NCBI RefSeq assembly: GCF_964355755.1
Contig: NC_092673.1
Span: 10,636,948 to 10,700,947 of the forward strand
Reading direction: 5' to 3'
From: Antedon mediterranea
Taxonomy: Eukaryota > Animalia > Echinodermata
Length of the DNA stretch: 64,000 nucleotides
Each line of letters begins with the position of its first letter. The stretch's first letter is position 1. Shown here piece after piece: positions 3,148 through 30,375 of the stretch. The notes under the pieces were generated by a model. That model made no database searches. It saw only the letters and a list, made by a program, of their open reading frames with translations, and was not told the DNA's origin. The translations under genes were made by a program, and so were the position numbers.

Positions 3148-3184
3148 CACACTCACGTCATATTGCGAATTTTGGACAAAAAGT
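3148..3184 (+). repeat. Left bipartite terminal inverted repeat: CACACTC-N21-ACAAAAAGT
   Basis: Read directly: heptamer 3148-3154, spacer 3155-3175, nonamer 3176-3184. Confidence 0.8.
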
Positions 3185-5262: not shown

Positions 5263-5289
5263 ACTTTTTGTCTAGTCTAAATGAATGTG
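5263..5289 (-). repeat. Right bipartite terminal inverted repeat: CACATTC-N11-ACAAAAAGT
   Basis: Reverse complement read directly: heptamer 5289-5283, spacer 5282-5272, nonamer 5271-5263. Confidence 0.8.
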
Positions 5290-8200
5290 ATTTGGAGACG
5301 TTTAAACATCAAATTGTACAAAATAGCTTCAAATCGCATTTGGACACGTTTTAGACCATTTTGAGTATTTCGACAAAACTTTTTTACACAAAACATAGAA
5401 TTGTACAACATAGCTTCAAATCGCATTTGGAGACGTTTTAGACCATTTTGAGCATTTCAATAAAACATTTCACACAAAATATAAAATTGTACAAAATAGC
5501 TTCAAATCTCATTTAGAGACGTTTTAGACCACTTTGAGCATTTCGATGAAACTTGGTTACACAAAAACATCAAAGTGTTTAAAATCACATTTGCAACCGT
5601 TTTAGATCACTTTGAGCATTTCGACAAAACTTTTTCACACAAAATATTAAATTGTACAAAATAACTTCAAATCGCATTTGGAGACGTTTTAGACCATTTT
5701 GAGTATTTCAATAAAACTTTTCACACTAAAACATGAAAGTGCACAAAATATATTAATATCGTATTTAGAAACGTTTTAGACCATTTTGAGCATTTCGATA
5801 ACACTTTTTCAAACAAAACATCAAAATGTACAAAATATCTTCAAATCTCATTTAGAGACGTTTTAGACCATTTTGTGCATTTCGATGAAACTTGGTTACA
5901 CAAAAACATCAAAGTGCTTAAAATCACATTTGAAACCATTTTAGACCATTTTGAGCATTTCGATAAAACTTTTTACACAAAAACATCAAAGTGCACAAAA
6001 TAGCTTCAAATCGCATTTGGAGACCTTTTAGACCATTTTGAGCATTTCAATAAAACTTTTCACACTAAAACGTCAAAGTGCACAAAATAGATTAATATCG
6101 TTTTTGGAAACGTTTTAGACCATTTTGAGCATTTCGACAAAACTTTTTCACACAAAATATAAAATTGTACAAAATAACTTCAAATCGCATTTGGAGACGT
6201 TTTAGACCATTTTGAGTATTTCAATAAAACTTTTCACACTAAAACATGAAAGTGCACAAAATATATTAATATCGTATTTAGAAACGTTTTAGACCATTTT
6301 GAGCATTTCGATAACACTTTTTCAAACAAAACATCAAAATGTACAAAATATCTTCAAATCTCATTTAGAGACGTTTTAGACCATTTTGTGCATTTCGATG
6401 AAACTTGGTTACACAAAAACATCAAAGTGCTTAAAATCACATTTGAAACCATTTTAGACCATTTTGAGCATTTCGATAAAACTTTTTACACAAAAACATC
6501 AAAGTGCACAAAATAGCTTCAAATCGCATTTGGAGACCTTTTAGACCATTTTGAGCATTTCAATAAAACTTTTCACACTAAAACGTCAAAGTGCACAAAA
6601 TAGATTAATATCGTTTTTGGAAACGTTTTAGACCATTTTGAGCATTTCGACAAAACTTTTTCACACAAAATATAAAATTGTACAAAATAGCTTAAAATCG
6701 CATTTGGAGACGTTTTAGACCATTTTGAGCATTGCAATAAAACTTTTTCACAGAAAACATCAAATTGTACAAAATAGCTTCAAATCGCATTTGGAGACGT
6801 TGTAGACCATTTTGAGCATTTCAATAAAACCTTTCACACTAAAACATCAAAGTGCACAAAATAGATTAATATCGTATTAAGAAACGTTTTAGACCATTTT
6901 GAGCATTTCGACAAAACTTTTTCACACAAAATATAAAATTGTACAAAATAGCTTCAAATCGCATTTGGAGACGTTTTAGACCATTTTTGAGCATTTCGAT
7001 AAAACTTTTCACATAAAAACATAAAAGTGCAAAAAATAGCTTAATATCGTATTTGGAAACGTTTTAGACCATTTTGAACATTTTGACAAAACTTTTTCAC
7101 ACAAAACATCAAATTGTACAACATAGCTTCAAATCGCATTTGGAGACGTTTTAGACCATTTTGAGCATTTCAATAAAACTTTTCACACTAAAACATCAAA
7201 GTGCACAAAATAGATTAATATCGTATTTAGAAACGTTTTAGACCATTTTGAGCATTTCGACAAAACTTTTTCACCCAAAATATAAAATTGTACAAAATAG
7301 CTTCAAATCGAATTTGGAGTTGTTTTAGACAATTTTGAGCATTTCGTTAAAACTTAATCAAACAAAACATCAAAAAATACAAAATATCTTCAAATCTCAT
7401 TTAGAGACGTTTTAGACCATTTTGTGCATTTCGATAAAACTTTTCACACTAAAACATCAAAGTGCACAAAATAGCTTAATATCGTATTTGGAAACGTTTT
7501 AGACCATTTTGAACATTTCGACAAAACTTTTTCACACAAAACATCAAATTGTACAAAATAACTTCAAATCGCATTTGGAGACGTTTTAGACAATTTTTGA
7601 GCATTTCAATAAAACTTTTCACACTAAAACATCAAAATGTACAAAATAGCTTAAAATAACATTTGAAACCGTTTTAGACCATTTTGAGCATTTCAAAAAA
7701 ACTTTTCACACAAAAACATCAAAGTGCACAAAATAGCTTCAAATCGCATTTGGAGACGTTTTAGACCATTTTGAGCAGTTCAATAAAACTTTTCACACTA
7801 AAACATCAAAGTCCACAAAATTGATTAATATCGTATTTCGAAACGTTTTAGACCATTTTGAGCATTTCGATAAAACTTTTTCACACAAAACATCAAATTG
7901 TACGAAATAGCTTCCAATCGCATTTGGAGACGTTTAAACATCAAATTGTACAAAATAGCTTCAAATCGCATTTGGACACGTTTTAGACCATTTTGAGTAT
8001 TTCGACAAAACTTTTTTACACAAAACATAGAATTGTACAACATAGCTTCAAATCGCATTTGGAGACGTTTTAGACCATTTTGAGCATTTCAATAAAACAT
8101 TTCACACAAAATATAAAATTGTACAAAATAGCTTCAAATCGCTTTTGGAGACGTTTTAGACCATTTTGAGCATTTCGATAAAACTATTTCACACAAAACA

Positions 8201-11200
8201 TCAAAATGTACAATTTAGCTTCAAATCTCATTTAGAGACGTTTTAGACCACTTTGAGCATTTCGATGAAACTTGGTTACACAAAAACATCAAAGTGTTTA
8301 AAATCACATTTGCAACCGTTTTAGATCACTTTGAGCATTTCGACAAAACTTTTTCACACAAAATATTAAATTGTACAAAATAACTTCAAATCGCATTTGG
8401 AGACGTTTTAGACCATTTTGAGTATTTCAATAAAACTTTTCACACTAAAACATGAAAGTGCACAAAATATATTAATATCGTATTTAGAAACATTTAGACT
8501 ATTTTGAGCATTTCGATAACACTTTTTCAAACAAAACATCAAAATGTACAAAATATCTTCAAATCTCATTTAGAGACGTTTTAGACCAGTTTGTGCATTT
8601 CGATGAAACTTGGTTACACAAAAACATCAAAGTGCTTAAAATCACATTTGAAACCATTTTAGACCATTTTGAGCATTTCGATAAAACTTTTTACACAAAA
8701 ACATCAAAGTGCACAAAATAGCTTCAAATCGCATTTGGAGACCTTTTAGACCATTTTGAGCATTTCAATAAAACTTTTCACACTAAAACGTCAAAGTGCA
8801 CAAAATAGATTAATATCGTATTTGGAAACGTTTTAGACCATTTTGAGCATTTCGACCAAACTTTTTCACACAAAATATAAAATTGTACAAAATAGCTTAA
8901 AATCGCATTTGGAGACGTTTTAGACCATTTTGAGCATTGCGATAAAACTTTTTCACAGAAAACATCAAATTGTACAAAATAGCTTCAAATCGCATTTGGA
9001 GACGTTGTAGACCATTTTGAGCATTTCAATAAAACTTTTCACACTAAAACATCAAAGTGCACAAAATAGATTAATATCGTATTAAGAAACGTTTTAGACC
9101 ATTTTGAGCATTTCGACAAAACTTTTTCACACAAAATATAAAATTGTACAAAATAGCTTCAAATCGCATTTGGAGACGTTTTAGACCATTTTTGAGCATT
9201 TCGATAAAACTTTTCACACAAAAACATAAAAGTGCAAAAAATAGCTTAATATCGTATTTGGAAACGTTTTAGACCATTTTGAACATTTCGACAAAACTTT
9301 TTCACACAAAACATCAAATTGTACAAAATAACTTCAAATGGCATTTGGAAACGCTTTAGACCATTTTGAGCATTTCGACAACACTTTTTCACACAAAACA
9401 TCAAATTGTACAACATAGCTTCAAATCGCATTTGGAGACGTTTTAGACCATTTTGAGCATTTCAATAAAACTTTTCACACTAAAACATCAGAGTGCACAA
9501 AATAGATTAATATCGTATTTAGAAACGTTTTAGACCATTTTGAGCATTTCGACAAAACTTTTTCACACAAAATATAAAATTGTACAAAATAGCTTCAAAT
9601 CGAATTTGGAGTTGTTTTAGACATTTTTGAGCATTTCGATAAAACTTAATCAAACAAAACATCAAAATGTACAAAATATCTTCAAATCTCACTTAGAGAC
9701 GTTTTAGACCATTTTGTGCATTTCGATAAAACTTTTCACACTAAAACATCAAAGTGCACAAAATAGATTAATATCGTATTTTGAAACGTTTTAGACCATT
9801 TTGAGCATTTCGACAAAACTTTTTCACACAAAATATAAAATTGTTCAAAATAGCTTCAAATCGAATTTGGAGTTGTTTTAGACAATTTTGAGCATTTCGA
9901 TAAAACTTAATCAAACAAAACATCAAAATGTACAAAATATCTTCAAATCTCATTTAGAGACGTTTTAGACCATTTTGTGCATTTCGATAAAACTTTTCAC
10001 ACAAAAACATCAAAGTCCACAAAATAGCTTAATATCGTATTTGGAAACGTTTTAGACCATTTTGAACATTTCGACAAAACTTTTTCACACAAAACATCAA
10101 ATTGTACAAAATAACTTCAAATCGCATTTGGAGACGTTTTAGACAATTTTTTTAGCATTTCAATAAAACTTTTCACACTAAAACATCAAAGTGCAAAAAA
10201 TAGATTAATATCGTATTTAGAAACGTTTTAGACCATTTTGAGCATTTCGAAAAAACTTTTTCACACAAAATATAAAATTGTACAAAATAGCTTCAAATCG
10301 AATTTGGAAATGTTTTAGACAATTTTGAGCATTTCGATAACACTTTTTCAAACAAAACATCAAAATGTACAAAATATCTTCAATCTCATTTAGAGACGTT
10401 TTATACCATTTTGTGCATTTCGATGAAACTTGGTTACACAAAAACATCAAAGTGCTTAAAATCACATTTGAAACCATTTTAGACCATTTTGAGCATTTCG
10501 ACAAAACTTTTTCACACAAAACATCAAAATGTACAATTTAGCTTCAAATCGCATTTGATGACGTTTTAGACCATTTTGTGCATTTCGATGAAACTTGGTT
10601 ACACAAAAACATCAAAGTGTTTAAAATCACATTTGAAACCGTTTTAGATCATTTTGAGCATTTCGACAAAACTTTTTCACACAAAATATCAAATTGTACA
10701 AAATAACTTCAAATCGCATTTGGAGACGTTTTAGACCATTTTGAGCATTTCAATAAAACTTTTCACACTAAAACATCAAAGTGCACAAAATAGATTAATA
10801 TCGTATTTAGAAACGTTTTAGACCATTTTGAGCATTTCGACAAAAATTTTTCACACAAAATATAAAATTGTACAAAATAGCTTCAAATCGAATTTGGAGT
10901 TGTTTTAGACAATTTTGAGCATTTCGATCAAACTTTTTCAAACAAAACATCAACTTGTACAAAATATTTTCAAATATCATTTAGAGACGTTTTAGACCAT
11001 TTTGTGCATTTCGATGAAACTTGGTTACACAAAAACATCAAAGTCCATTTTGAGCATTTCGATAAAACTTTTCACACAAAAACATCAAAGTGCAAAAATC
11101 GCTTAGTATCGTATTTGGAAACGTTTTAGACCATTTTGAACATTTCGACAAAAACTTTTTCACACAAAACATGAAATTGTACAAAATAACTTCAAATGGC

Positions 11201-14200
11201 ATTTGGAGACGTTTTAGATCATTTTGAGCATTTCGACAAAACTTTTTCACACAAAATATCAAATTGTACAAAATAACTTCAAATCGCATTTAGAGACGTT
11301 TTAGACCATTTTGAGCATTTCAATCAAACTTTTCACACAAAAACATCAAAGTGCACAAAATAGATTAATATCGTATTTAGAAAGGTTTTAGACCATTTTG
11401 AGCATTTCGAAAAAACATTTTCACACAAAATATAAAATTGTACAAAATAGCTTCAAATCGAATTTGGAAATGTTTTAGACAATTTTGAGCATTTCGATAA
11501 CACTTTTCAAACAAAACATCAAAATGTACAAAATATCTTCAAATCTCATTTAGAGACGTTTTAGACCATTTTGTGCATTTCGATGAAACTTGGTTACACA
11601 AAAACATCAAAGTGCTTAAAATCACATTTGAAACCATTTTAGACCATTTTGAGCATTTCGATAAAACTGTTCACACAAAAACATCAACGTGTACAAAATA
11701 GCTTAATATCGTATTTGGAAACGTTTTAGACCATTTTGAACATTTCGACAAAACTTTTTCACACAAAACATCAAATTGTACAACATAATTTCAAATCGCA
11801 TTTGGAGACGTTTTAAACCATTTTGAGCATTTCAATAAAACTTTTCACACTAAAACATCAAAGTGCACAAAATAGCTTAACATCGTATTTGGAAACGTTT
11901 TAGACAATTTTGAACATTTCGACAAAACTTTTTCACACAAAACATCAAATTGTACAAAATAGCTTCAAATCGCATTTGTAGACGTTTTATACCATTTTGA
12001 GAATTTCAATAAAACTTTTCACACTAAAACATCAAAGTGCACAAAATAGATTAATATCGTATTTAGAATCGTTTTAGACCATTTTGAGCATTTCGACAAA
12101 ACTTTTTCACACAAAATATAAAATTGTACAAAATAGCTTCAAATCGAATTTGGAGTTGTTTTAGACACTTTTGAGCATTTCGATAAAACTTAATCAAACA
12201 AAACATCAAAATTTACAAAATAGCTTAATATCGTATTTGGAAACGTTTTAGACCATTTTGAACATTTCGATAAAACTTTTTCACACAAAACATCAAATTG
12301 TACAAAATAACTTCAAATCGCATTTGTAGACGTTTTAGACAATTTTTGAGCATTTCAATAAAACTTTTAACACTAAAACATCAAAGTGCACAAAATAGAT
12401 TAATATCGTATTTAGAAACGTTTTAGACCATTTTTGAGCATTTCGATAAAACTTTTCACACAAAAACATAAAAGTGCAAAAAATAGCTTAATATCGTATT
12501 TGGAAACGTTTTAGACCATTTTGAACATTTCGACAACACTTTTTCACACAAAACATCAAATTGTACAACATAGCTTCAAATCGCATTTGGAGACGTTTTA
12601 GACCATTTTGAGCATTTCAATAAAACTTTTCACACTAAAACATCAAAGTGCACAAAATAGATTAATATCGTATTTAGAAACGTTTTAGACCATTTTGAGC
12701 ATTTCGACTAAACTTTTTCACACAAAATATAAAATTGTATAAAATAGCTTCAAATCTAATTTGGAGTTGTTTTAGACAATTTTGAGCATTTCGATAAAAC
12801 TTAAACAAACAAAACATCAAAATGTACAAAATATCTTCAAATCTCATTTAGAGACGTTTTAGACCATTTTGTGCATTTCGATAAAACTTTTCACACTAAA
12901 ACATCAAAGTCCACAAAATAGCTTAATATCGTATTTGGAAACGTTTTAGACCATTTTGAACATTTCGATAAAACTTTTTCACACAAAACATCAAATTGTA
13001 CGAAATAGCTTCCAATCGCATTTGGAGACGTTTAAACATCAAATTGTACAAAATAGCTTCAAATCGCATTTGGACACGTTTTAGACCATTTTGAGTATTT
13101 CGACAAAACTTTTTTACACAAAACATAGAATTGTACAACATAGCTTCAAATCGCATTTGGAGACGTTTTAGACCATTTTGAGCATTTCAATAAAACATTT
13201 CACACAAAATATAAAATTGTACAAAATAGCTTCAAATCGCTTTTGGAGACGTTTTAGACCATTTTGAGCATTTCGATAAAACTATTTCACACAAAACATC
13301 AAAATGTACAATTTAGCTTCAAATCTCATTTAGAGACGTTTTAGACCACTTTGAGCATTTCGATGAAACTTGGTTACACAAAAACATCAAAGTGTTTAAA
13401 ATCACATTTGCAACCGTTTTAGATCACTTTGAGCATTTCGACAAAACTTTTTCACACAAAATCTTAAATTGTACAAAATAACTTCAAATCGCATTTGGAG
13501 ACGTTTTAGACCATTTTGAGTATTTCAATAAAACTTTTCACACTAAAACATGAAAGTGCACAAAATATATTAATATCGTATTTAGAAACGTTTTAGACCA
13601 TTTTGAGCATTTCGATAACACTTTTTCAAACAAAACATCAAAATGTACAAAATATCTTCAGATCTGATTTAGAGACGTTTTAGACCATTTTGTGCATTTC
13701 GATGAAACTTGGTTACACAAAAACATCAAAGTGCTTAAAATCACATTTGAAACCATTTTAGACCATTTTGAGCATTTCGATAAAACTTTTTACACAAAAA
13801 CATCAAAGTGCACAAAATAGCTTCAAATCGCATTTGGAGACCTTTTAGACCTTTTTGAGCATTTCAATAAAACTTTTCACACTAAAACGTCAAAGTGCAC
13901 AAAATAGATTAATATCGTATTTGGAAACGTTTTAGACCATTTTGAGCATTTCGACAAAACTTTTTCACACAAAATATAAAATTGTACAAAATAGCTTAAA
14001 ATCGCATTTGGAGACGTTTTAGACCATTTTGAGCATTGCGATAAAACTTTTTCACAGAAAACATCAAATTGTACAAAATAGCTTCAAATCGCATTTGGAG
14101 ACGTTGTAGACCATTTTGAGCATTTCAATAAAACTTTTCACACTAAAACATCAAAGTGCACAAAATAGATTAATATCGTATTAAGAAACGTTTTAGACCA

Positions 14201-17200: not shown

Positions 17201-18148
17201 CTTAAAATCACATTTGAAACCGTTTTAGACCATTTTGAGCATTTCGATAAAACTTTTCACACAAAAACATCAAAGGGCACAAAATAGCTTAACATCGTAT
17301 TTGGAAACGTTTTAGACCATTTTGAGCATTTCGATAAAACTTTTTCACACAAAACATCAAATTGTACGAAATAGCTTCAAATCGTATTTGGAGACGTTTA
17401 AACGTCAAATTGTACAAATTAGCTTCAAATCGCATTTGGACACGTTTTAGACCATTTTGAGTATTTCGACAAAACTTTTTTACACAAAACATCAAATTGT
17501 CATTACCAGTCTAAGCCTGGCTAACCGTTAGCTTTTAGTACCCCGGCTAGCCCAGGTAGTAGTTGTGTCTTTTTAATTAGGCTGACCATGAGTAATCATT
17601 TTACCATGATATATTAGGTGCAATCACCACCACCGAAAGGCTATTCACTATGCATCAGTAAACACAAGAAATTTGAGAACGCCTCTTTCTCTCAGTGATT
17701 AGATTGTTATTGAGCGCGAAATGTAGTAGGGCATTACAATATACTTATACTATTCCTTCTGTGTGAATTGTTATATTCCACTTTTAATAAAAATGTACAA
17801 TACACCAGAATAAGAAATCTCGCCAGTCCAGGCCAGTGTTATATAGCAACGTAAAATCAAAACGTTTAAATCGGAAAGCAATGAATATTTGTCTCACCCA
17901 CGTTTGGAATATGTATGTCATGTGACCAACCACCAGGCTATCCAACCAATCATGGTATAATTAGCAGGATAGGTACAGTATTGCTTTAATAGTAAGGCAG
18001 CTCTTAATATTGTACCATTCTCAAACACTTCACAATCGGAGAATCCGACTCCCACATTATTTAATCTAATTATTTTCTTTTATTTCAAAGTTAAAGATAA
18101 TAATGTAGTCCCGGTTTATATAATCTTAATCAATCCATTAGTTTAAAC

Positions 18149-18732
18149 ATGGCACTGCAACACACTGGGCATCTTCGATGGCCAATAGATAATATCCCTT
18201 GCATCGAAAGGAATGGTGTTGTATACTTAGAAGTTAGGGAATCGTTTCAATTCCTTGGAATATGGCGTAGAAAAGAAAAGTATGGGTACGGACAAATTGA
18301 TAAATTTATGAATGAGAACGGAATTGTTGTGAGAAATGAAATACTGACCAGCAATACTGGCAAAAGAACACATATAAGAAAAAAACAAACCTATACAGAC
18401 ATTCAAGAATATACACAAAAAATATTTGAGTTACGAGACTTTCTCCTATTAAAAGCCACTACCGCCGCAGTAAACCAAAGGGTTGTTATTGACGAAGATG
18501 ACCCTATTATTATTAATCAAAACACAAGGCAAAAAAAGTCCACTTCCAATCTAGTAAGTGCCCTGGACAGAGCACCTGGAGAGAATGGGTATTTGCAACC
18601 CAAAAGTCCATCCCAAAAGCAATCTGTGTGGCGTTTGAATCGTCGAATCGATACGCAGCGAACTGCCTTAAAGAAACTTGCTTCCGATGTTCATGGGGGC
18701 TCAAAGCAAGACCTACTTCAGGGACTGGTTTG
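18149..18732 (+). pseudogene. Transposase exon 1 (N-terminal region)
   Basis: ATG at 18149, open to donor TG|GTATGT at 18732/18733. Splices in frame to exon 2. Confidence 0.65.
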
Positions 18733-18937
18733 GTATGTATCATAACATTGATATTTAAATTCAAATAATAAATTCGTTAGGCGTCACAGTAAGACTCCTC
18801 TAATAATAATATATTTAATAAATTAAGTTCATACCGGTAATAAGCAAAAGTTAACATTTCTAACATAGCAGTATAATTTGCATAATTGAGTACGAACAAA
18901 CCTAAATAATAATTCAACTCATATAAATTAATTATAG

Positions 18938-19075
18938 GGAGTTATCACGACCGGTGCTTGACAACGAGCCTGACGATTGGAATGGTCGTCTCCGTGCAGA
19001 TGATCTTGTGTGGGTGTTAAAACAGACTAAGTCATCGTGTAACAAAGATCCGTCACTTTTTGATGAGATAGTCAG
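18938..19075 (+). pseudogene. Transposase exon 2 (ELSRPVLDNEPDDWNGRLRADDLVWVLKQ...FDEIV)
   Basis: Acceptor ATTATAG|G and donor AG|GTAAA. Stop-free in the phase-2 frame and absent from the ORF track. Confidence 0.65.
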
Positions 19076-19289
19076 GTAAAATACAAAATAGTTTATTTTA
19101 ATAAGATGTAAATTCTTAAGTAATATACTATGTTTTATTCCATAAAGTGCATATTCCGCAATGTCTATATACCCTGCCTATATGCAACTCCTTGATTTAT
19201 AAAAGCTATATTATAATGTACACTAGCGGTCCTTTTTTATATTGTTTACACATAATAGGCTTAACAAGATAGGTTTTGTGTCTTTACAG

Positions 19290-20097
19290 GAAAGCAGCTG
19301 AGGATAAATACTTTTTAAGCGAAGAAAGAGTGCTCCATCTTGAAGACACATGCAATGTATCAGATGCAATTTCAGAACTAAGGAAATTTCTTCCCTGGTA
19401 TGTTAGCTTCTGGATACAAGGTTAAGAAAGTAAAGGAAAAGCATAACAGAAACTTCCGAAACGTTTGGAAACCAATTGAAACAGCTGGAGGCTGGACCTT
19501 AAACGTACAAGCGTTATATGAAACACTTTGTATACGGTACGATTTCCTTGAAACGTTAAGAGGACTCCAGCTATGGCGATTATATATCGACGGGAGAACA
19601 TACGGACGTCGACCAACGACGGTAGTCTCCATATCAAACATAAATGGCATTCAGGAGCTTAAGGGAAACAAAATTCATAGTCCTTCAATGTTTTGGAGAG
19701 TTGGGCTATTTAATTTTGGGGACGATCGATTCAACTTAGAAGCAAATCTGATATCTGGCACAGAATGTATTTACAATAAATGGATACGGTCTCATACAGC
19801 ACAGGGGAATGAAGTCTTTCTCTCTTTTGATGCCAAGTGCCAGGATGCAATAGTTGGCGGCAAGGTGGGTCCATTGACGCAAGATGGGTTCAATATTTAT
19901 ATGTGCTGCACAAAAGAAAGCAACACAAAGTTTGACGCAACGACTGGACTTCGATCAACAATTCCAAAGGCGATCGACCGAGTGCATTCGGAACGTATCT
20001 CTGATATTAAGCTGGAAAATATGGGGATATGCATTGATCATGCGATCACCAGAACTATGGAGTATGAGCTCGAGAAGTTGGTTAATGATGTTCACAA
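19290..20097 (+). pseudogene. Transposase exon 3: RNase H-like core with the first two catalytic Asp candidates
   Basis: Acceptor TCTTTACAG|G and donor AA|GTATTC. Asp codons at 19589-19591 (YIDGR) and 19829-19831 (SFDAK); His at 20039-20041 (CIDHAITR). Frameshift just before 19400. Confidence 0.75.
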
Positions 20098-20327
20098 GTA
20101 TTCATTCTTTACTTGATCCATGGATAGCATATTGTTTCAAACTATTATTTTGTTGCAATTAGGCTATGTAAAACAACAGGGAATTGTAAAATAAGAAATA
20201 CAATACTGTTGAGGGATACAACTGGTTTGGGGACTGTAATATCAAAGAACAGTACCTTGATAACACATTGTTAATACTGTTAAGTGTTATAAACCAAATC
20301 GACAACTGTTTTTTGTTGTATTTATAG

Positions 20328-21081
20328 GAAAACTTCGTTAATTGCTGGAAGAGAGGGCGTCCGATTTCGTTCTGGAAGGTCAAGAAGGCTCGAAGCCAAC
20401 ATTAAAGCCCGAGGTGTACATCGTGACAAAGACGGCGGATTCCACATCCGCTTTGATGAAAATGATAAGCTTCAAAAAATTTCTTTGAACAAGTCGTCAG
20501 CCCAGCTAATTCTGTACCCTGCCGACAAGACCTTTTTTGCATACGAAAATGATTGTCCATTTACAGATATTTTTGACGGAGAATTTTCAAAACAACTTGC
20601 CCGACGATTTGCAAATTTTGTTAAACGTCAACTATCACTTACAAAAGAGTGCATCAATTGATATTTTACCATCTGGCTATGATGTATAAAATTCTACGAC
20701 AATGCCCACGTAGAGAGCGAGATGAAAATCTTGTTGAAAGCATTAATGAAGACGATTATGAGTGAGGCCTCAGCAATGACACCATCAAAGAATACACAAG
20801 GCACGCCGATTTATTTCATCGTCTTCAGGTGTTTCGGTTCGGCAATAAGTTTTCTCCGTACGAGATGAAGTTAATCGATGTTGTACTAATTTTGCTGAAA
20901 TCGCTTCCGTTTCACAGTTTGATGCCTTTGTCGACTGAAGGGGGTGAACGTTCACATTATGTCGACATGTGTCATTTTTATCAGCACACGATGCGTGGTG
21001 GTGGAAAGGGAAAGGAAGATCCAATACTGAAACTATTTCAGTGGCAGTGGAGAAAACTTGTCCACGAAATATCAGAATGTT
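20328..21081 (+). pseudogene. Transposase exon 4, 5' part: insertion domain and catalytic Glu candidate
   Basis: Acceptor TTTATAG|G. Reads ...RLEANIKARGVHRDKDGGFHIRF...ISLNKSSAQLIL..., frameshift, ...HLAMMYKILRQ...DDYE*GL...FSPYEMKL...STEGGE (Glu at 20946-20948)...WQWRKLVHEISEC. Confidence 0.7.
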
Positions 21082-21294
21082 TTTGATGATGAGGGCGCTC
21101 TGGTCAGGAAACCAAGGTGACAGGCCAAACCAAGCTCTGAGTAAAATAGTTATTTTTACACCATATTTCACTGTAAAACGAGGACTAAGTAAGTAATCCT
21201 GATTTACATAAGGATTCTGAACAAAAAGAAGTTTGTCGTTTGGTATATTACGATAATATACTCAAGTTTAACGTGTAAAATCCAACGTAGCTTA

Positions 21295-22530
21295 ATGGCT
21301 ACATATCAACCGAAATCTCCCGCCGCTTCTACAGAGTCAGCGGGGGCTACGAGCAACCGAGTAAACAAAGCCGGTATGCAAACAACGCAACAACAAGGAG
21401 GTGTGAAGCCGGTGTTTTTAAAAGCAGACCAAATTCCAACCGATAAATCGTTCTTTAGAGATGAAGATCTATGCATTACATTAACAAAAATTATACCCGC
21501 CGATCACATCGTAGGTGTTCAGAAAATCCGGAATCTCTGGAGAATCTATGTCAATGATAGGAAAGACAGAGTGCAACTAATAACGAACGGTATTAACATA
21601 AGAAATTGTAATGTCACAGTGTTCGACATTAATCCATATCTTGCATATAACAAAACGGACAGTACGAGAATCCTCATTAAAGATATTCCGTTGTCTGTAG
21701 CGGACTCCGAGATAGCAAACCGGTTAAAAGCATTGGGTTGCAAACCAGTAAGTGATATAATGAGGCAAAAAATCAGAGTCAACGGACAACTGACAAGTTG
21801 GCTTAATGGTGATAGGGCTGTCTTTGTTGAAAAAATGTCATCCCCCATACCCAGGCAAATCGTTTTAAATGGTTTCAAAGCTCGTGTGTTTCACGAAGGA
21901 CAAGAGATCAAATGTAACAAATGCTTGAAAAATGGACACGAAGCTTATCAATGTAAGGCTAATAGAGTATGCTTTAAATGTCACCAAGAAGGTCATACTA
22001 TGAGCACTTGCAACAATGAAATAGGCCAACAGCAAATATCAGCCAACTCAATGGGATCAACAGGGGCATATATTAACCGTATGTGGGAATCATTTGTGCA
22101 CACTCCAATACCAAAACAAATAACAGATAAAGACTTAAAGATAACAGATAAAGATAAATCACATGATAATGCAAACCCAAATTCAGACACAGAAATAGAT
22201 ATTGATGAAGTGTTCAGCTCACAAGATACTGCAGATGACAGCAGCGGAAGTGAATCTGATGAAGAACAAGAACATGTAAAAGACAAAGATATAATAATTT
22301 TGGACAGTGAGGAAAAGACCATTAGTGAAGCAAGTGAAAGCAAAGAACAGAAGAAGGTAACAGATTTTTTTGTTTCTTCCACTCAAAACTCAAAAAGTAA
22401 CAATGAAAGGAAAGGGGCTACCACTGATGAAAGTAGAACTGAAAAAGATTTAAAGGAAACATCACCAGAAAATCCACCACAGAAAACCAAAAAAAAAATC
22501 AACCTAAGGAAAAGGGTTACAAGGAAGTAA
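21295..22530 (+). CDS. L1/Tx1 ORF1p, gag-like nucleic-acid-binding protein with two CCHC zinc knuckles
   Basis: 411-aa open frame. RRM-like IVGVQKIRNLWRIYV...RILIKDIPLSV; knuckles CNKCLKNGHEAYQC and CFKCHQEGHTMSTC; low-complexity acidic/basic tail. Confidence 0.92.
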   Translation: MATYQPKSPAASTESAGATSNRVNKAGMQTTQQQGGVKPVFLKADQIPTDKSFFRDEDLCITLTKIIPADHIVGVQKIRNLWRIYVNDRKDRVQLITNGINIRNCNVTVFDINPYLAYNKTDSTRILIKDIPLSVADSEIANRLKALGCKPVSDIMRQKIRVNGQLTSWLNGDRAVFVEKMSSPIPRQIVLNGFKARVFHEGQEIKCNKCLKNGHEAYQCKANRVCFKCHQEGHTMSTCNNEIGQQQISANSMGSTGAYINRMWESFVHTPIPKQITDKDLKITDKDKSHDNANPNSDTEIDIDEVFSSQDTADDSSGSESDEEQEHVKDKDIIILDSEEKTISEASESKEQKKVTDFFVSSTQNSKSNNERKGATTDESRTEKDLKETSPENPPQKTKKKINLRKRVTRK

Positions 22531-22650
22531 GTTGCAGAACTACTGTATCATACTGTGCAATATGACTTCAAATGTTTATTATTACAATTTAGTTTTTTTA
22601 TTTAAGATAAATTATAAAGTTTATAAAATGTTTTTATATTTAATAATCAT

Positions 22651-25600
22651 ATGACACCAAACATACACCTTTTATCATTAAATGTTAGAGGATTTAGAGA
22701 AAAACAAAAACAAATTAGTATTTTTAAATGGGTCAAAGACAACAAAGCAGATATCATCTTCATTCAAGAATCACATTTGACAAATGATAAAACCCAGTCA
22801 CTGAATGATATATGGCAAGGTGATTCCTACCACTGCTTTGGCTCATCACACAGTAGAGGAACATCCACATTTATTGCTAGTAAAATTCAACACAGGGTAA
22901 CAAAACAATACAAAGATATTAATGGTAGATTTTTACTTCTAAGAGTTGAAATAGATGACAACTATTTCATTCTTGTCAATTCATATGCCCCAAATTATGT
23001 AAAAGATCGATGTTCTTACTTCAGGACTTTACATAAAACAATTATTGACTTCAAAGAAAGCAAAAATGATAAAATAATTATAGGTGGTGACATGAATTGT
23101 GCTCTAGACAGAAAATTTGACCAAAAAGGTAGTGTCGATAGAGTAGATAATTCTGTTTTTACAATAACACATTTTATGAAAAATCTGAATCTTAATGACA
23201 TCTGGAGAAAAAATAACCCGGATACATGTCAATTCACATGGCGAAGGAAATCCACCCAAACATACAGAAGGTTGGACTATTTTTTTATATCTAACGACTT
23301 ATGTGAATATGTTAACACATGTGATATCAAGCCGTCAATCATGTCTGTAAAGTAAGTTTAACTAATGAAGAAAGAGGCCCAGGATTATGGAAAATGAACA
23401 ATTCTCACTTAGATAATGAAGATTATATAAACAACATCAAAAACATAATAGAAAGAGCTAGATTAGAAGAACTTAACCCAAAGGATAAATGGGAAATGAT
23501 TAAAGTAAAAATAAGGGAATTCTCCATAAAATATGGGAAAATGAAAAATAAAAATAAATGCAAAAGAAAAGAAATACTTCAACAGAAAATTGCTATCATT
23601 AATGATTTAATTATGAAAAAGGATAATACTGATAATAATATCCAGTATGAAACAGAATTAGATCAAAAAAAGAATGAACTTGAGCAAATTTACCTATTGG
23701 AAGCTAAAGGCGCTCAAATTAGGTCAAGAGTAAAGTGGATAGAAGATGGCGAACGAAACACTAAATACTTTCTTGGTTTAGAGAAAAATAATAGTAATAA
23801 AAAACATATTAAAAAATTAAAAAAAACAGGACGGATCCATTATATCAAATTCCACAGAGATATTGAAGGAAGAGGTTAATTTCTTCAAAAAAATATATGC
23901 AAAACAAGATGTTCCTTACAAATCAATTGATAAGTACCTATCTCATGTTAATTTAACTAAACTCACAGAGGCAGAACAAGAGATGTGTGAGGGTCATCTC
24001 TCTCTCTTCGAATGTGAGCAAGCAATAAAGAAAATGAAAAAAAATAAAGCTCCAGGCAGTGACGGTTTAACAGTTGAGTTTTATCAACTCTTCTGGTACC
24101 TTATCTGTGACCTTGTTTGTGATGCACTAAATTATGGTTTTGCCACACAAGAAATGTCTGTGTCACAAAGAAGGGGAATAATCAACCTTATTTACAAAAA
24201 AGGTGATCACAAAGATTTAAATAACTGGCGCCCTATCACTTTACTCAATATTGACTACAAAATAGCTTCTTTTGTTCTTACAACAAGATTACATCGAGTT
24301 GCAAAGTATATAATAAACAATGACCAAAAAGGGTATGTAAAAGGTCGCTTTGGTGGTGACAATATAAGACTAATAGAGGACATAATTACTTACATGGAAA
24401 ATGAACAGCTTGAAGGTATACTTATAAGTTTAGATTTCCAAAAAGCATTTGACAGTGTCAATAGATCATTTTTAATAGAAGCCTTAAATAAATTCAATTT
24501 TGGTATTTCATTTGTGAACTGGGTAAAAGCACTGTATAACAATACAAATTGTATATTCACAAATAATGGTTGGCAATCAGAAAGTTTTGCAATGCACCAA
24601 GGTATTAGACAAGGATGTCCCTTGTCTGCTCTATTGTTTATTTTAGTAGCTGAAGTCCTAGCTACAAAAATAAGAGCATGCGATATGGTCAAAGGCCTGA
24701 TTGTTCCTGCAGGCAATGGTATATTTAAAGATATAAAGATTGCACAGCTAGCAGATGACACTGTGCTTTTTCTAAAGGATATAAATAGTATAGATAACAG
24801 CATAAGTATTATTGAAAAGTTTGGAGAGGTTTCTGGATTAAAATTAAATAAGAATAAAACAAATGCTTTTTGGCTTGGCAGTTTAAGAGACTGCAAGGAC
24901 ACACATGGTAACATTTCTTGGACATCCACACCAATTCGGATATTAGGTATCTATGTTGGACATGATAAGGAATATTGTTATCAAAAGAACTGGAAAGAAA
25001 AAATAGACGCATTAGAAAATACCCTAAAAACATGGGAGAAAAGACACCTCACTTTTTTTGGAAGAATTACTATTGTAAAAACATTAGCGCTTTCAAAAAT
25101 TATATACAATTCCTGCATTTTGCTAGTACCAGAAAAAGTAATAAAAGAGGTGGATAAATTAATTTTTAAATTCATTTGGGAAACTAAGAAAGAGAAAATA
25201 AAAAGAAAAACCATGTGTGCCAATTACAGTCAAGGTGGTCTAAAAATGGTAGAATTCAGATCTCAGGTAATATCTTTCCAAGTTAAATGGTACAGGAGAC
25301 TGTATGAAAACGATGATGCCAAATGGAAATATTTACCTACATTTTATATAGAAAAGATAGGCCCAAAATCATTAACCTCAAATTTATCAAAAGTTCCGTG
25401 TAATATATCCGTACCACCATTTTACCTCTCAGTTATTAAGTCTATAGCAGTAGCTAATGCTTGTAATAATAGATTAAATAAGGAACCAATAAGCTATGAT
25501 GACATTATTAATCAATCATTATGGGGTAATGAGTTTATATGTATTAAAAAGAAGCCGTTATATAACTGTAACTGGATTAGTTCAGGGTTTTTAAAAATAT

Positions 25601-26313
25601 ATGATGTAATAAATAATAATGTGTTTAAGCCTGCGATAGAGATAAAAAGAAGGTTAAGATGTACACAAAATTGGATCAGTGAATATTCATGTATATTGAA
25701 AGCCATTCCAAAAGAATGGAAATGTATTTTAAAATCAACACATGACATTAATGTAAATGATATACCTATTACAAACAATAAGGTCTTAAATATGACGTCT
25801 AGACAATTATATAGATTCATAATAGATGCTCAATATATTACACCTACGGCACAGGTTAAGTGGGAATCCATATTTGGTAATATGCCATGGACAAAAATAT
25901 GGGTTAAGAAAGTTTCTGGTCTTAAAAAAAAAAAACTGGCACATTTTAATTTTAAATTGTTGCACAGAATATTGCCAACAAATGAAAGATTACATAGGTG
26001 GAGACTTGTAAATTCCCCATGTTGTGACACATGCAATGTTATTGAGAATGATAAACATATGTTAGTAGAGTGCATAACAGTAAAATGTTTATGGAGAGAG
26101 ATAAAAGAAATAATTAGAGCAGTAAGCATACATATTCCTGTTTTTTCTTTCAAAAGACTTTTATTTGAAACTGACAATAATTACGTAAATAAATTATACA
26201 CTTTAGGAGCATTTTGTATTTATAAAGTAAAGATATTAAGTTTATTGGAAAAAGAAAAAAAAATCAATCTCCTACAAATGTTTAAATCTGAAAAAAAGAT
26301 AAGAAATATGTAA
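22651..26313 (+). pseudogene. L1/Tx1 ORF2p (AP endonuclease + reverse transcriptase + C-terminal Cys/His finger), frameshifted
   Basis: APE motifs LNVRG, IQESH, YAPN, GGDMN, DIWR, FTW, RLDYFF. RT motifs KAPGSDG, NWRPITLLN, DFQKAFDSV, GIRQGCPLS, LADD. C-terminal CDTC-x8-H-x4-C. A frameshifting deletion at ~23346 removes the expected SDH motif; a +1 frameshift lies in the A8 run at 23819-23826. Confidence 0.93.
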
Positions 26314-26395
26314 ATCTGCAGGTATACTGTATATGCTCAACCAGATTAAGGAAGAAAATATGTAAATGAGATACCATGAATGATGAATCTATTAT

Positions 26396-26430
<35 letters not shown>

Positions 26431-26711
26431 CTACTATACTGTATATTTTGTAAATATGTATACCTTGATGATTTGAAAACAAAAAGACAAAATGTGAAAA
26501 GCTTTTTATAGATTGATGATAAAAAAAATGATGAAGGATAAGAAGGTTTAGGTTTAAGTGGTGAAGTGTTTTCATCAAAGCTTTCATATTATAGGTATAT
26601 ACCGTATATATGTAATTTGCACATTCTTACTGCATGTGGAATTTTGAAATGATAAAATGGTTAAAAAGAAAAAAAAATGTCAAATTTTGTTAATGGATCA
26701 TTAAACACAAA

Positions 26712-27765
26712 TGTTGTTAAATGATAATGTATGTATAAAAAAATAATAGAATAAATAATAAGTAAAAAAAAATAATTGAATGAACCCACATAGGAAAAAA
26801 AAGTTAAATGAAACTTTGATGGGTTATACTGTAGATGCAAAAAAGGATAATCTGTTGGAAATAAATTTTGTAAACATTTAAAGATCAAAAAAAAATCAAT
26901 GTTAAAGGATGAGGAAAATATAATGTTAACAGTAAAAAGTTAGTAAGTAATTAGTATAACTGAGAATATGCATTGTTTTAAATGAAAATATGTTTGCATA
27001 GATAAATCCAAAGAAAAATAGAATGGGACAAACCCATGGGATGGATTTATTAAACATAAACGTATTATAATTGTATGAAATAAATATGCATGTAGATGAA
27101 AAAAAACCAAAAACAACTATGTAAGAAAAAATAAGCTTTGTTATTGAAAATGTGTTATAGATAATATGTATAAAAAGAGGAAACTATGTAATCAATGTGG
27201 TTAAATGATAATGTATGTATAAACAAAATAATATATGGAAATAGTTTTTTTTTTTTTTAAAGAAAATAAGTAAAAAAAAAAAGTGGAATGAATCCACATA
27301 AGAGAAGAAAGTAAAAAAGTTAAATGAAAATTTAAGAAGTTATAGATGCAAAAAAGGATCTGCTGGTTCTGTAAACATTAAAGAACAAAAATATTAATAT
27401 TAATGTTAAAGGATGAGAACAATATTATGTTAACAGCAAACATTTAGTAAGTAATGAGTATAACAGAGAATATGCATTGTTAAATGAAAATGTGGTAGAT
27501 GAAAAAAAATCAAAAACAACTATGTAAGAAAAAAAAAAAATAAGCTTGTTAATGAAAATGTGTTACAGATAATATGTTTAAAAAGAGGAAGCTATGTAAT
27601 CAATGTGATAATATGTAAACAAATGAATAAAACTCTTTAAATAAGTATATGTATACAGATGATTAAACAAACATTGTAAATATAATGATATGTATAGTGT
27701 ATAGTGAAAAATATATGTAAAGAGAACAGTGGTATGGAAATAAAAGTGGGATGAACCCACATAAG
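26712..27765 (+). repeat. Diverged ~490-bp tandem duplication within the retrotransposon 3'UTR
   Basis: GTTAAATGATAATGTATGTATAAA at ~26715 and ~27200; AATGTTAAAGGATGAG at ~26897 and ~27402; TGAA(C/T)CCACATA at ~26781, ~27289 and ~27752. Confidence 0.75.
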
Positions 27766-27790
27766 ATAAAAAAAAAAATATCAGAATGTT

Positions 27791-28355
27791 CGGACACCGT
27801 ACAGGAACGTTTCACTAAATTGGTAAACGACTCAGTAGCAGAGAACAATGAAACAGATAACAATTTAGATGAAACAATAGGCCCGAATGACGTGGAAATA
27901 CACGATCTCACCAACCAACAATTAGATAGTGAAGAAGCAGCTCAACAATCATCGATGTGTGTTCTTAGTTGGAAAACAATCGTTCTTGCCGGTACGCTTT
28001 ACAAATTGCAGAAGGAAATAGCTTCAACGAAACTTATTACGAAATTCGGGGGAACACTCTGGTCTATATCAAAGTCGACTTTGCCATCCCCATACATTCC
28101 ACATCATAACCTAATCGTTGTGTCAACACAAAAAGAGTGCGACAAGGCCCATGGAAAAGTCCCTACTTTGCTTGCGGAGGCAGCACGACGCGGGGTTACA
28201 ATTGTCAGCGATAACTTTTTGAAAGATATTGAGAACGGATGTATCGGAACACGGTCTCATAAGGATTACCTCCTTGATACATCGACATCCGAAAATGCAC
28301 CAACAATGACTTTGCAGAGTTTACCACAGGATACTACACTTCAACAATATAAAAG
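27791..28355 (+). pseudogene. Transposase exon 4, 3' part: acidic linker plus BRCT-like domain (~27961-28278)
   Basis: Continues in frame from ...HEISEC once the L1 and one TSD copy are removed. LSWKTIVLAG...LITKFGG...IVVST...AARRGVTIVSDNFLKD...DYLL follows the BRCT pattern. Donor AG|GTACGT. Confidence 0.7.
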
Positions 28356-28791
28356 GTACGTCAGGCTTCTTTTATAGTAAACAAACTAAATAATTATTTA
28401 ATAATTTTTGTATGAGCCGACATACGCGTTAAAGTAGCAAAATCGTTTAATGCACATTACGTGTTATGTTTAATGTGATATCTAACCACCGGTGATCTAA
28501 CACGATAAACAAATCAAAACTACAATGGTTCGAAATACATAACACTGGGCCCATTAAAGATAACATTTAAATAATAATATATAACAAAATCAGAATCAAA
28601 TTGGTATAGATAATAATAATAATATAATGTTCTTTAGCAAACTTGTGGATAAATATCTATAATGTTTTGCGTTTAAAGTTGATATATACTGTATCCGTGT
28701 CGCAGTACAGTAAAGTAACTTCCAATGCGCATTACAGTACCTAGTTTTAATTGTATTCGGGGTGTAAACGCATTTTAATTCATTTTTAAAG

Positions 28792-28944
28792 GTTCAAGTT
28801 CAAGATGAAAATACACCTATCATAGCACAGAATCGCTTGACTAGTCAAAATCGAAGAGACGTTGAAAGATGGAATAATCTGACAAGGGACGAGAAGGAAG
28901 TGTGGAATACCAGAGCGCGTCTACTTAATGACAACAGACCGTAG
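28792..28944 (+). pseudogene. Probable last exon, HMG-box-like C-terminus (ERWNNLTRDEKEVWNTRAR)
   Basis: Acceptor TTTTAAAG|G. W-x2-L-T-x2-EK-x2-W-x3-A matches the HMG-box helix 2/3 pattern. Stop TAG at 28942-28944. Phase with the previous exon requires a frameshift, so the join is uncertain. Confidence 0.45.
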
Positions 28945-29070
28945 GTAAAGCAGTTATTGAAGATGAAATAATTAAACTAAATTGGTAACAGAAACAAAAA
29001 ACGCAAACTCCTGTATTTATTTATAAAAATATTAATATTTTAATATACGGTATTCACTCAATATTTAATT

Positions 29071-30375
29071 ACCTAATTTAAATAGTGTGCTATCCAATTG
29101 AAGTGTGCTATCCAATTGAAGTAGTGTGCTAATCATTTGGAATGATGTGCTACCCAATTGAAATAGTGTGCTATCCATTTGGAATGATGTGCTACCCAAT
29201 TGAAATAGTTTGTTATCCATTTGGAATGATGTGCTACCCAATTGAAATAGTGTGCTATCCATTTGGAATGATGTGCTACCCAATTGAAATAGTGTGCTAT
29301 CCATTTAGAATGATGTGCTACCCAATTGAAATAGTGTGCTCTCCATTTGGAATGATGTGCTACCCAATTTAAATAGTGTGCTATCCATTTGGAATGATGT
29401 GCTATCCAATTGAAATAGTGTGCTGTCCATTTGGAATGATGTGCTACCCAATTGAAATAGTGTGCTATCCATTTGGAACGATGTGCTACCCAATTGAAAT
29501 AGTGTGCAATCCATTTGGAACGATGTGCTACCCAATTGAAATAGTGTGCAATCCATTTGGAATGATGTGCTACCCAATTGAAATAGTGTGCTATCCATTT
29601 GGAATGATGTGCTACCCAATTGAAATAGTGTGCTCTCCATTTGGAATGATGTGCTATCCAATTGAAATAGTGTGCTATCCAATTGAAGTGTGCTATCCAA
29701 TTGAAATAGTGTGCTATCCATTTGTGATGTGCTACCCAATTGAAATAGTGTGCTATCCATTTGGAATGATGTGCTACCCAATTGAAATAGTGTGCTATCC
29801 ATTTGGAATGATGTGCTACCCAATTTAAATAGTGTGCTATCCATTTGGAATGATGTGCTATCCAATTGAAATAGTGTGCTGTCCATTTGGAATGATGTGC
29901 TACCCAATTGAAATAGTGTGCTATCCATTTGGAACGATGTGCTACCCAATTGAAATAGTGTGCTATCCATTTGGAATGATGTGCTCCCCAATTGAAATAG
30001 TGTGCTATCCATTTGGAATGATGTGCTACCCAATTGAAATAGTGTGCTATCCATTTGGAATGATGTGCTATCCAATTGAAATAGTGTGCTATCCAATTGA
30101 AGTGTGCTATCCAATTGAAATAGTGTGCTATCCATTTGTGATGTGCTACCCAATTGAAATAGTGTGCTATCCATTTGGAATGATGTGCTACCCAATTGAA
30201 ATAGTGTGCTATCCATTTGGAATGATGTGCTACCCAATTTAAATAGTGTGCTATCCATTTGGAATGATGTGCTATCCAATTGAAATAGTGTGCTGTCCAT
30301 TTGGAATGATGTGCTACCCAATTGAAATAGTGTGCTATCCATTTGGAATGATGTGCTATCCAATTGAAGTAGTGT
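29071..30375. repeat. 42-bp minisatellite (dimer of related 21-bp subunits)
   Basis: Unit GTGTGCTATCCATTTGGAATGATGTGCTACCCAATTGAAATA, about 30 copies. It produces the repetitive MMCYPIEIVCYPFG and MDSTLFQLGSTSFQ ORFs. Confidence 0.97.

Follow-up and report, generated by a model that had tools for sequence, protein, structure and literature searches.

What kind of gene lies in pieces between positions 18149 and 28944 of a 64,000-nucleotide stretch of the genome of the echinoderm Antedon mediterranea (NCBI RefSeq assembly GCF_964355755.1, contig NC_092673.1, forward strand, positions 10,636,948 to 10,700,947; the whole stretch is hereafter the window, numbered from its first letter)? A sequence-only reading had proposed that fragments of open reading frame (ORF) in this span join, once an L1 element is removed, into one spliced transposase gene that resembles RAG1 and Transib and ends in BRCT and HMG box domains. 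Here, we provide evidence that a terminal-repeat transposon, dead in this copy and broken up by an L1, probably lies in the window; in its intact relatives, a DDE enzyme predicted to have a RAG1-like core fold carries BRCT and HMG box domains on the same chain, and likely moves the element by cut and paste at ends that begin CATTAC. These elements apparently form an undescribed lineage of RAG1-fold cut-and-paste transposons, and by defining motifs they are not Transib.

Results

A dead transposase gene interrupted by an L1 element

The predicted model of the window copy is a forward-strand gene with a summed exon length of 3002 nt. Exon 1 (18149-18732) carries one copy of a family-specific N-terminal repeat domain of ~95 amino acids, followed by the start of a helical pre-core region, and matches residues 5-209 of the best relative, a protein we call P0001, at 31%; exon 2 (18938-19075) continues the helical region (52% to P0001 207-249). 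The ribonuclease H (RNase H) core falls in exon 3 (19290-20097), with the first Asp at 19589-19591, the second at 19829-19831 and the His of a C-x-x-H motif at 20039-20041. Exon 4 is split: its first part (20328-21081) would encode a helical insertion domain and the catalytic Glu (20946-20948), and its second part (27791-28355) an acidic linker and a single BRCT domain (~27967-28227). Introns 1-3 (18733-18937, 205 nt; 19076-19289, 214 nt; 20098-20327, 230 nt) are all GT-AG and all in phase 2, and P0001 is collinear with exons 1-4, the BRCT part included, in an alignment that halts and resumes at each intron. The weakest part of the model is its last junction, from 28355 or 28359 to 28792. The candidate intron 4 (28356-28791) has a strong donor after 28355 that does not keep the HMG frame and runs into a stop after 11 codons, and a weaker donor after 28359 that does keep it; beyond the intron, the degenerate last exon (28792-28944) appears to retain, of the HMG box of the family, helix three alone (~28864-28920).

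What splits exon 4 is a full-length L1-type long interspersed nuclear element on the forward strand (21082-27775), foreign to the DNA transposon, with its 5′ end near 21092, a zinc-knuckle ORF1, an endonuclease/reverse transcriptase ORF2 in three frames, and an A-tail; ORF1 and the broken ORF2 span 21295-26313. It lies between the two forward-strand copies of a 15-bp target-site duplication (21067-21081 and 27776-27790), which are identical, occur nowhere else in the window, and are of a length reached in 0 of 20000 shuffles. When this 15-mer is counted once, both sides of exon 4 join in frame. We also examined contigs from four sequencing runs of two samples; one run presumed to be RNA had contigs that crossed introns 1 and 3 unspliced, and it was therefore counted as DNA. 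In all four runs contigs exit the window at 21082 and resume with the letters of 27792 onward, and a form free of the L1 therefore exists. The L1 is a late insertion into a single exon of the transposase gene. The proposal of a gene predicted to be spliced through phase-consistent GT-AG introns is borne out by the frames joined across the 15-mer, the shared phase of introns 1-3 and the collinearity of P0001. Ten extra bases precede the 5′ end that this L1 has in common with other copies (21092), its long 3′ region includes a 34-base run of T (26397-26430), and its read depth is several times that of the DNA transposon.

This copy of the transposase gene is dead: apart from the L1, its frame shifts near 19390 and twice more in the region of 20580-20625, and at 20763 it meets a stop. 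At the lesion sites, contigs from other copies are longer by 14 and 8 bases, which fit the frame offset of the window, and they have TGG in place of the stop; since these contigs have lost 8 bases of their own (20861-20869), we saw no intact copy in the species. In intron 3, four extra bases in the contigs of two runs produce a GTAAGT donor. Exon 1 likely has a length variant at 18378-18418, where a contig of run X5 gains 57 bases in frame at 18378 and the contigs of other runs break.

Relatives in marine invertebrates

Using window positions 19394-20095 as the query, we searched 1.84 billion representatives with HMMER (E ≤ 0.001) and recovered 100 relative proteins, of ~950-2100 amino acids in the family. 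The best, P0001 (1013 amino acids, 50% identity), is named as a crinoid protein, and in a tree of 56 retained rows (68 short matches dropped; no RAG1 or Transib outgroup) the window pairs with it (support 100/96). Among 30 proteins checked, six bore a species name, as did one cluster member: one is from the crinoid Anneissia, one from the acorn worm Glandiceps, and the other five come from a single species of the sea cucumber Holothuria, with three of these automatically named 'BRCT domain-containing protein'. Word-index protein searches returned nothing for two core pieces and only two proteins with a profile. A metagenome scan yielded 22 further loci of the family, given L-numbers below. Intron positions differ among relatives.

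A predicted RAG1-like core with conserved catalytic residues

We obtained an AlphaFold2 model of P0001 from 104 rows (predicted local distance difference test, pLDDT, 80.4; predicted template modelling score, pTM, 0.73); this is not a model of the window copy, for whose core a single-sequence model was unusable (pLDDT 28.8). In Foldseek searches, the P0001 model matched RAG1 first (E 1.4e-9), followed by HzTransib (3.2e-7), BbRAGL (2.8e-6) and the P element (1.8e-4). VIA-align placed model residues 254-774 on RAG1 459-1008 with Z 17-21, and DNA-bound HzTransib scored Z 20.0. Across 48,161 chains, RAG1 reached Z 20.2-20.3 (root-mean-square deviation, rmsd, 3.8-4.3; 419-424 residues aligned; one pre-reaction RAG1 chain 17.2), BbRAGL 19.4 and apo HzTransib 13.1. 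The best match of the model is thus not to P element, hAT or Mutator-type transposases, of which the P element scored 11.5, Hermes 7.4 and ISCth4 7.8 versus 20 for RAG1. Exon 2 aligns with the nonamer-binding region of RAG1 in some structural matches only: 4 of 33 RAG1/RAGL/Transib alignments (above weak Transib forms) reach back to model residues 158-166, set against RAG1 391-408 in that region, at rmsd 6.5-8.2. RAG1 clusters in the ESM Atlas came at 0.75-0.77, below 0.9, and are leads only.

Four residues of P0001 are nearly invariant in the family alignment: D345 (77 of 79 rows), D425 (73 of 78), H495 (58 of 60) and E726 (31 of 32), all four occurring together in 27 of the 28 rows that span them, and the same D, D, H and E are present in the window copy. 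As in RNase H, they fall in the P0001 model on strand 1, at the end of a later strand and where a helix begins. D703 of P0001 is invariant as well (32 of 32). Based on their order, the secondary structure of the model and the offsets at the ends of the match (E726 + 234 = 960), they are predicted to be the counterparts of RAG1 D600, D708, H795 and E962. H495 belongs to a conserved C/D-x-x-H motif (C in 51, D in 8 and H in 58 of 60 rows), and the spacing is about 79 residues between the two Asp and 292-309 from Asp to Glu. The five motifs that the sequence-only reading had quoted are all present in the window (19583, 19823, 20030, 20850 and 20931), and its choice of catalytic residues agrees with the alignment; we presume the RAG1 motif letters around D600, D708, H795 and E962 to be as it gave them. 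Its comparison with the RAG1 motif HKTLAH failed, as the two histidines of that motif have no counterpart here.

BRCT and HMG box in a single protein

The window BRCT (PF00533) exceeds the Pfam cut-off (E 3.5e-5; 24.4 bits versus 21.3). Residues 808-911 of the P0001 model match BRCT domains, including those of PARP1 and MDC1, with Z ~11.5 (up to 11.6), and of 30 long relatives, 16 have a Pfam BRCT match, 10 of these above the cut-off. Of 36 proteins, four had shorter tails and were set aside; in the 32 members with at least 130 amino acids after the catalytic-Glu region, family profiles detect BRCT every time and an HMG box in 22, counts that follow partly by construction. A profile of ten HMG-region stretches had HMG-box proteins as the first 48 of its 55 PDB matches (Nhp6A, E 1.2e-6; HMGB1, E 5e-4), and the HMG stretches of single members stay below the Pfam cut-off. 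For the window HMG exon, which has the third helix only, Pfam gave E 0.093 and the family profile E 0.007-0.012 among six frames; a second family-profile scan of this exon gave no match at E < 0.01.

A single open frame runs through the catalytic-Glu region, BRCT and HMG in six of the 22 loci. Spliced forms point the same way: eight GT-AG introns present in L012 are absent from L016 (for one the flank match is weaker, 17 of 24), including those at the joins from core to BRCT to linker to HMG, and L016 itself has frameshifts, while L005 lacks four introns of L018, three of them placed at GT-AG. The two domains could have belonged to a separate gene in intact homologs; we found one-frame fusions instead. 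The proposed fusion therefore holds as one polypeptide in intact relatives and, for the window, as far as the BRCT, which passes Pfam; the HMG part is there a third helix behind a weak junction.

The suggestion that the BRCT docks on repair proteins fared worse. BRCT domains that bind phosphopeptides have Ser or Thr before the Gly of the first loop and occur as a tandem pair. Here the domain is single, and just 5 of 28 rows have Ser or Thr ahead of the conserved Gly, with Ala at that position in the window; this speaks against phosphopeptide docking on repair proteins and makes that role, judged from sequence, doubtful.

Element ends and mobility

The sequence-only reading missed the left end of the element, and the partner gene of the relatives was not visible to it. 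A 35-bp terminal repeat candidate on the forward strand (17501-17535) begins CATTAC, a sequence with a chance of about 0.0003 per site by composition, and contig flanks break there. Among the loose ends listed, contigs show three different flanks before 17500/17501, none of which is the satellite of the window, and some contigs match the window over 17501-17535 alone and then diverge. L012 is a complete element of 9279 bp with 33-bp inverted ends (32 of 33 identical), both starting CATTAC, and L013 is the same element with a different right flank. The left end in the window and both ends of L012 have the 5′-CA..TG-3′ termini that PMC12730594 describes for the CMCT clade (EnSpm/CACTA, Mirage, Chapaev, Transib, Plavaka, ESTA as well as Lanisha). 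With its differing flanks, the inverted ends of L012 and five proteins in Holothuria, the element is a terminal-repeat DNA transposon and mobile. Positions 5770/5821 of L002 and the start of L009 also read CATTAC and are not established as element ends. L003 has a 33-bp inverted repeat (91%; 6997-7029 and 11935-11967) that encloses the partner gene alone and is unlike the CATTAC ends.

A partner gene in several relatives

Within the ends of L012, a 402-amino-acid frame on the minus strand (7862-9067) faces the transposase. Its relatives are found at L010:3632-4873, L003:10285-10761, L004:3-344 and residues 173-343 of the Holothuria protein P0094, to which a gene caller fused the partner (E 1.5e-17). 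The partner is present in 5 of 22 loci (L012, L013, L010, L004 and L003), which represent four distinct elements in three arrangements, convergent with, downstream of or upstream of the transposase; many of the 22 loci are short. The N-terminus of the L012 partner has a weak Agenet/MSL3 chromo-like match (E 0.002-0.004; Pcl Tudor, E 0.025), and the C-terminus of the partner holds an unnamed domain with an L-D-x-L-x-G-x-x-W motif. No PDB chain matched the partner profile, and the Agenet/BAH clusters that the ESM Atlas gave at ≤0.81 are a lead only. A convergent RAG2-like kelch gene (plus PHD) was not seen; the second gene of L012 is Agenet/chromo-barrel-like.

Additional domains and surroundings

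The ~95-residue N-terminal domain occurs 60 times in 38 sequences, in one to four copies each (18164-18448 in the window). It gave nothing useful against PDB sequences, Pfam or PHROGs; it may resemble Bro-N. Long members (P0004, P0010, P0021, P0027, P0028, P0036, P0038, P0045, P0047, P0095, L003, L004 and L009) share a conserved S/T-C-A/S-x-D start motif, which we take to be cysteine-protease-like; it comes with weak ubiquitin-protease Pfam matches and is found in neither P0001 nor the window copy. In P0004 a ubiquitin domain is present as well (E 7.5e-9). An IQ calmodulin-binding-like motif lies between core and BRCT in 9 of 59 members and was not seen in the window, and L018 alone has a helicase C-terminal fragment (1745-2260; PF00271, E 1.8e-12) ~1.1 kb upstream of the family transposase. 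A viral origin is without support, as viral contigs contained no relative and viral folds gave no match at E ≤ 0.001.

The window is AT-rich eukaryotic DNA made up mostly of tandem arrays, between which the element is wedged. Its left neighbour is an 87-bp satellite (1 to ~17500), and to the right of the last exon follow a 42-bp tandem array (29070-30375, no strand assigned) and an AG-rich array from 30378, which extends for more than 33 kb, by array scan to 32000 and by the same composition on to 64000. Two non-satellite islands within the 87-bp array (370-1275 and 3147-5304) have no match to the transposase or the partner, and an Rfam scan gave no match.

Discussion

The evidence for a dead copy of a mobile element, and for relatives that join a D-D-H-E core to BRCT and HMG in one polypeptide, is direct; the RAG1-like fold is predicted, and several results weigh against it or against the mechanism that we draw from it. 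No sequence-level match to RAG1 or Transib was found with a single sequence or a profile against PDB sequences and Pfam, and residues matched by structure to RAG1 are 10-12% identical. In their wider clade, solved structures exist solely for RAG1, BbRAGL and HzTransib, and because few superfamilies have been solved, the top structural rank of RAG1 may reflect what is solved. The zinc motifs C(2)C and H(3-4)H, common to the Transib/RAG1/CMCT clade according to PMC12730594, are missing: none of 58 rows has C(2)C between D425 and the C-x-x-H motif, and one of 30 has H(3-4)H before the catalytic Glu, that one off the motif position. The family is therefore not simply a Transib, and the likeness to RAG1 and Transib first proposed survives in the predicted fold, through the P0001 model, Foldseek and VIA-align, and not as Transib membership. 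The ends begin CAT in both the window and L012, not with the CAC heptamer of recombination signal sequences and Transib. Target-site duplications are 2-5 bp in the CMCT clade and 5 bp in Transib/RAGL, and a preprint describes Transib ends and duplications as variable (10.64898/2026.08.26.747230); we found no 1-10-bp flanking duplication of L012, whose contig may combine flanks of different copies, because the right flanks of L012 and L013 differ. The family profile does not detect an HMG box in 10 of 32 long-tailed members. In the window itself, we found neither a right terminal repeat or right end nor a partner gene.

Some of these points would be explained if the family fell in or beside another insertion-domain DDE superfamily without a solved structure, in the C/D(2)H group (e.g. 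Kolobok and Novosib), with RAG1 simply the nearest solved fold. The conserved C/D-x-x-H motif and the absence of C(2)C and H(3-4)H fit this placement, as does the Asp-Glu spacing of 292-309, compared with 206-214 in Transib and 253 in RAG1 (PMC1131882). We nevertheless regard it as unlikely: the solved enzymes of C/D(2)H type score far lower (P element 11.5, ISCth4 7.8, Hermes 7.4), the match covers the whole RAG1 core from 459 to 1008, and the CA..TG ends fit the CMCT clade (PMC12730594). Much less plausible still is that the intact relatives are domesticated host genes, nucleases with repair-type domains, and that a pseudogene of one such gene lies in the window. The long intact frames, in which BRCT and HMG are at times joined by ubiquitin or protease-like domains, and the existence of spliced forms would suit such genes, but inverted ends, flanks that differ between samples, several divergent copies per species and differing intron positions argue for a transposon. 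That BRCT and HMG came from a neighbouring gene or arrived with the L1, a fusion accidental to this locus that the 6.7 kb between core and window BRCT and the degenerate HMG exon might suggest, is refuted beyond reasonable doubt by L1-free contigs in four of four runs, one-frame fusions in many relatives and the spliced joins of L016.

If the relatives are indeed transposons with a RAG1-like core, their enzyme, as the model predicts, would work like RAG1 and Transib yet fail the defining motifs of the clade. RAG1 and Transib act as dimers through a nick, a flank hairpin and strand transfer. By analogy, the family enzyme would cut the element out at its CATTAC ends and paste it elsewhere, a dimer pairing both ends, nicking them, opening the flank hairpin and carrying out strand transfer. 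The fused HMG box may bend the end DNA in cis, a role that HMGB1 plays in trans for RAG, and for the BRCT, single and basic, a grip on DNA or a protein is likelier than one on a phosphopeptide. In the several relatives that have it, the Tudor/chromo-barrel-like partner could, again by analogy, steer the enzyme to marked chromatin by reading methylated histones.

More tentatively, and with rather less than even confidence, we raise the possibility that this marine-invertebrate family is a sister lineage of RAG1/Transib at superfamily level, free of the zinc site, with an HMGB-like bender in cis, a BRCT, often a cysteine-protease-like domain at the N-terminus, and, where RAG has RAG2, a separate Tudor/chromo-barrel reader. 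For RAG, the bending of its signals depends on HMGB1 supplied in trans, and the reading of chromatin on RAG2. Were the sister-lineage reading true, these elements would amount to a natural experiment in which a RAG-like machine was put together independently, their own genes holding functions that V(D)J recombination borrows or came by separately. The same core fold with a fused HMG box, a BRCT and a frequent reader partner would make repeated recruitment of helper functions testable, as well as the dispensability of the zinc site thought common to the Transib/RAG1/CMC clade; the window copy itself is a fossil, and natural intact copies exist for such work.

The architecture had not been recognised among described elements, and our literature search agrees, finding no paper on a transposase with it; Repbase, subscription journals and supplements lay outside this search, and there is a small but real chance that the family already sits in an existing catalogue. 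The accessible parts of PMC7204232 and 10.1101/2021.09.26.461848 make no mention of BRCT or HMG, and that of PMC10629977 none of BRCT, HMG or Tudor.

Among known systems, the P element (6p5a) and the hAT transposase Hermes (8edg) resemble the family in having an RNase H core with a helical insertion and are far weaker structural matches (Z 11.5 and 7.4). Both P element and hAT carry the C/D-x-x-H motif. The CMCT clade shares the 5′-CA..TG-3′ termini and a resemblance to RAG1, and differs in having C(2)C and H(3-4)H, motifs common to the clade (PMC12730594) and absent from the family. Transib (HzTransib 6pqx/6pqn) is alike in fold (Z 20.0 DNA-bound, 13.1 apo), in terminal inverted repeats and in a DDE triad with a long insertion; it has conserved zinc cysteines, a protein of about 700 amino acids, one gene and 5-bp duplications (Kapitonov and Jurka 2005, PMC1131882), whereas our family has proteins of about 950-2100 amino acids, often a partner gene, and no duplication seen. 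From the RAG1 core (6cij, 4wwx and 9jpu; mouse and zebrafish) and amphioxus BbRAG1L (6b40), the family differs in lacking C2H2 zinc ligands, a RING/ZDD match and any visible RAG2-like kelch partner, in ends that read CAT and not CAC, in the fused BRCT and HMG box, in the 10-12% identity, and in spacings of about 79 (D-D) and about 300 (D-E). They are nonetheless its best whole-core structural match (Z 19-21 over about 420 residues), and have in common with it the D-D-H-E order, the CA start of the ends and, in L012, a second gene facing the transposase.

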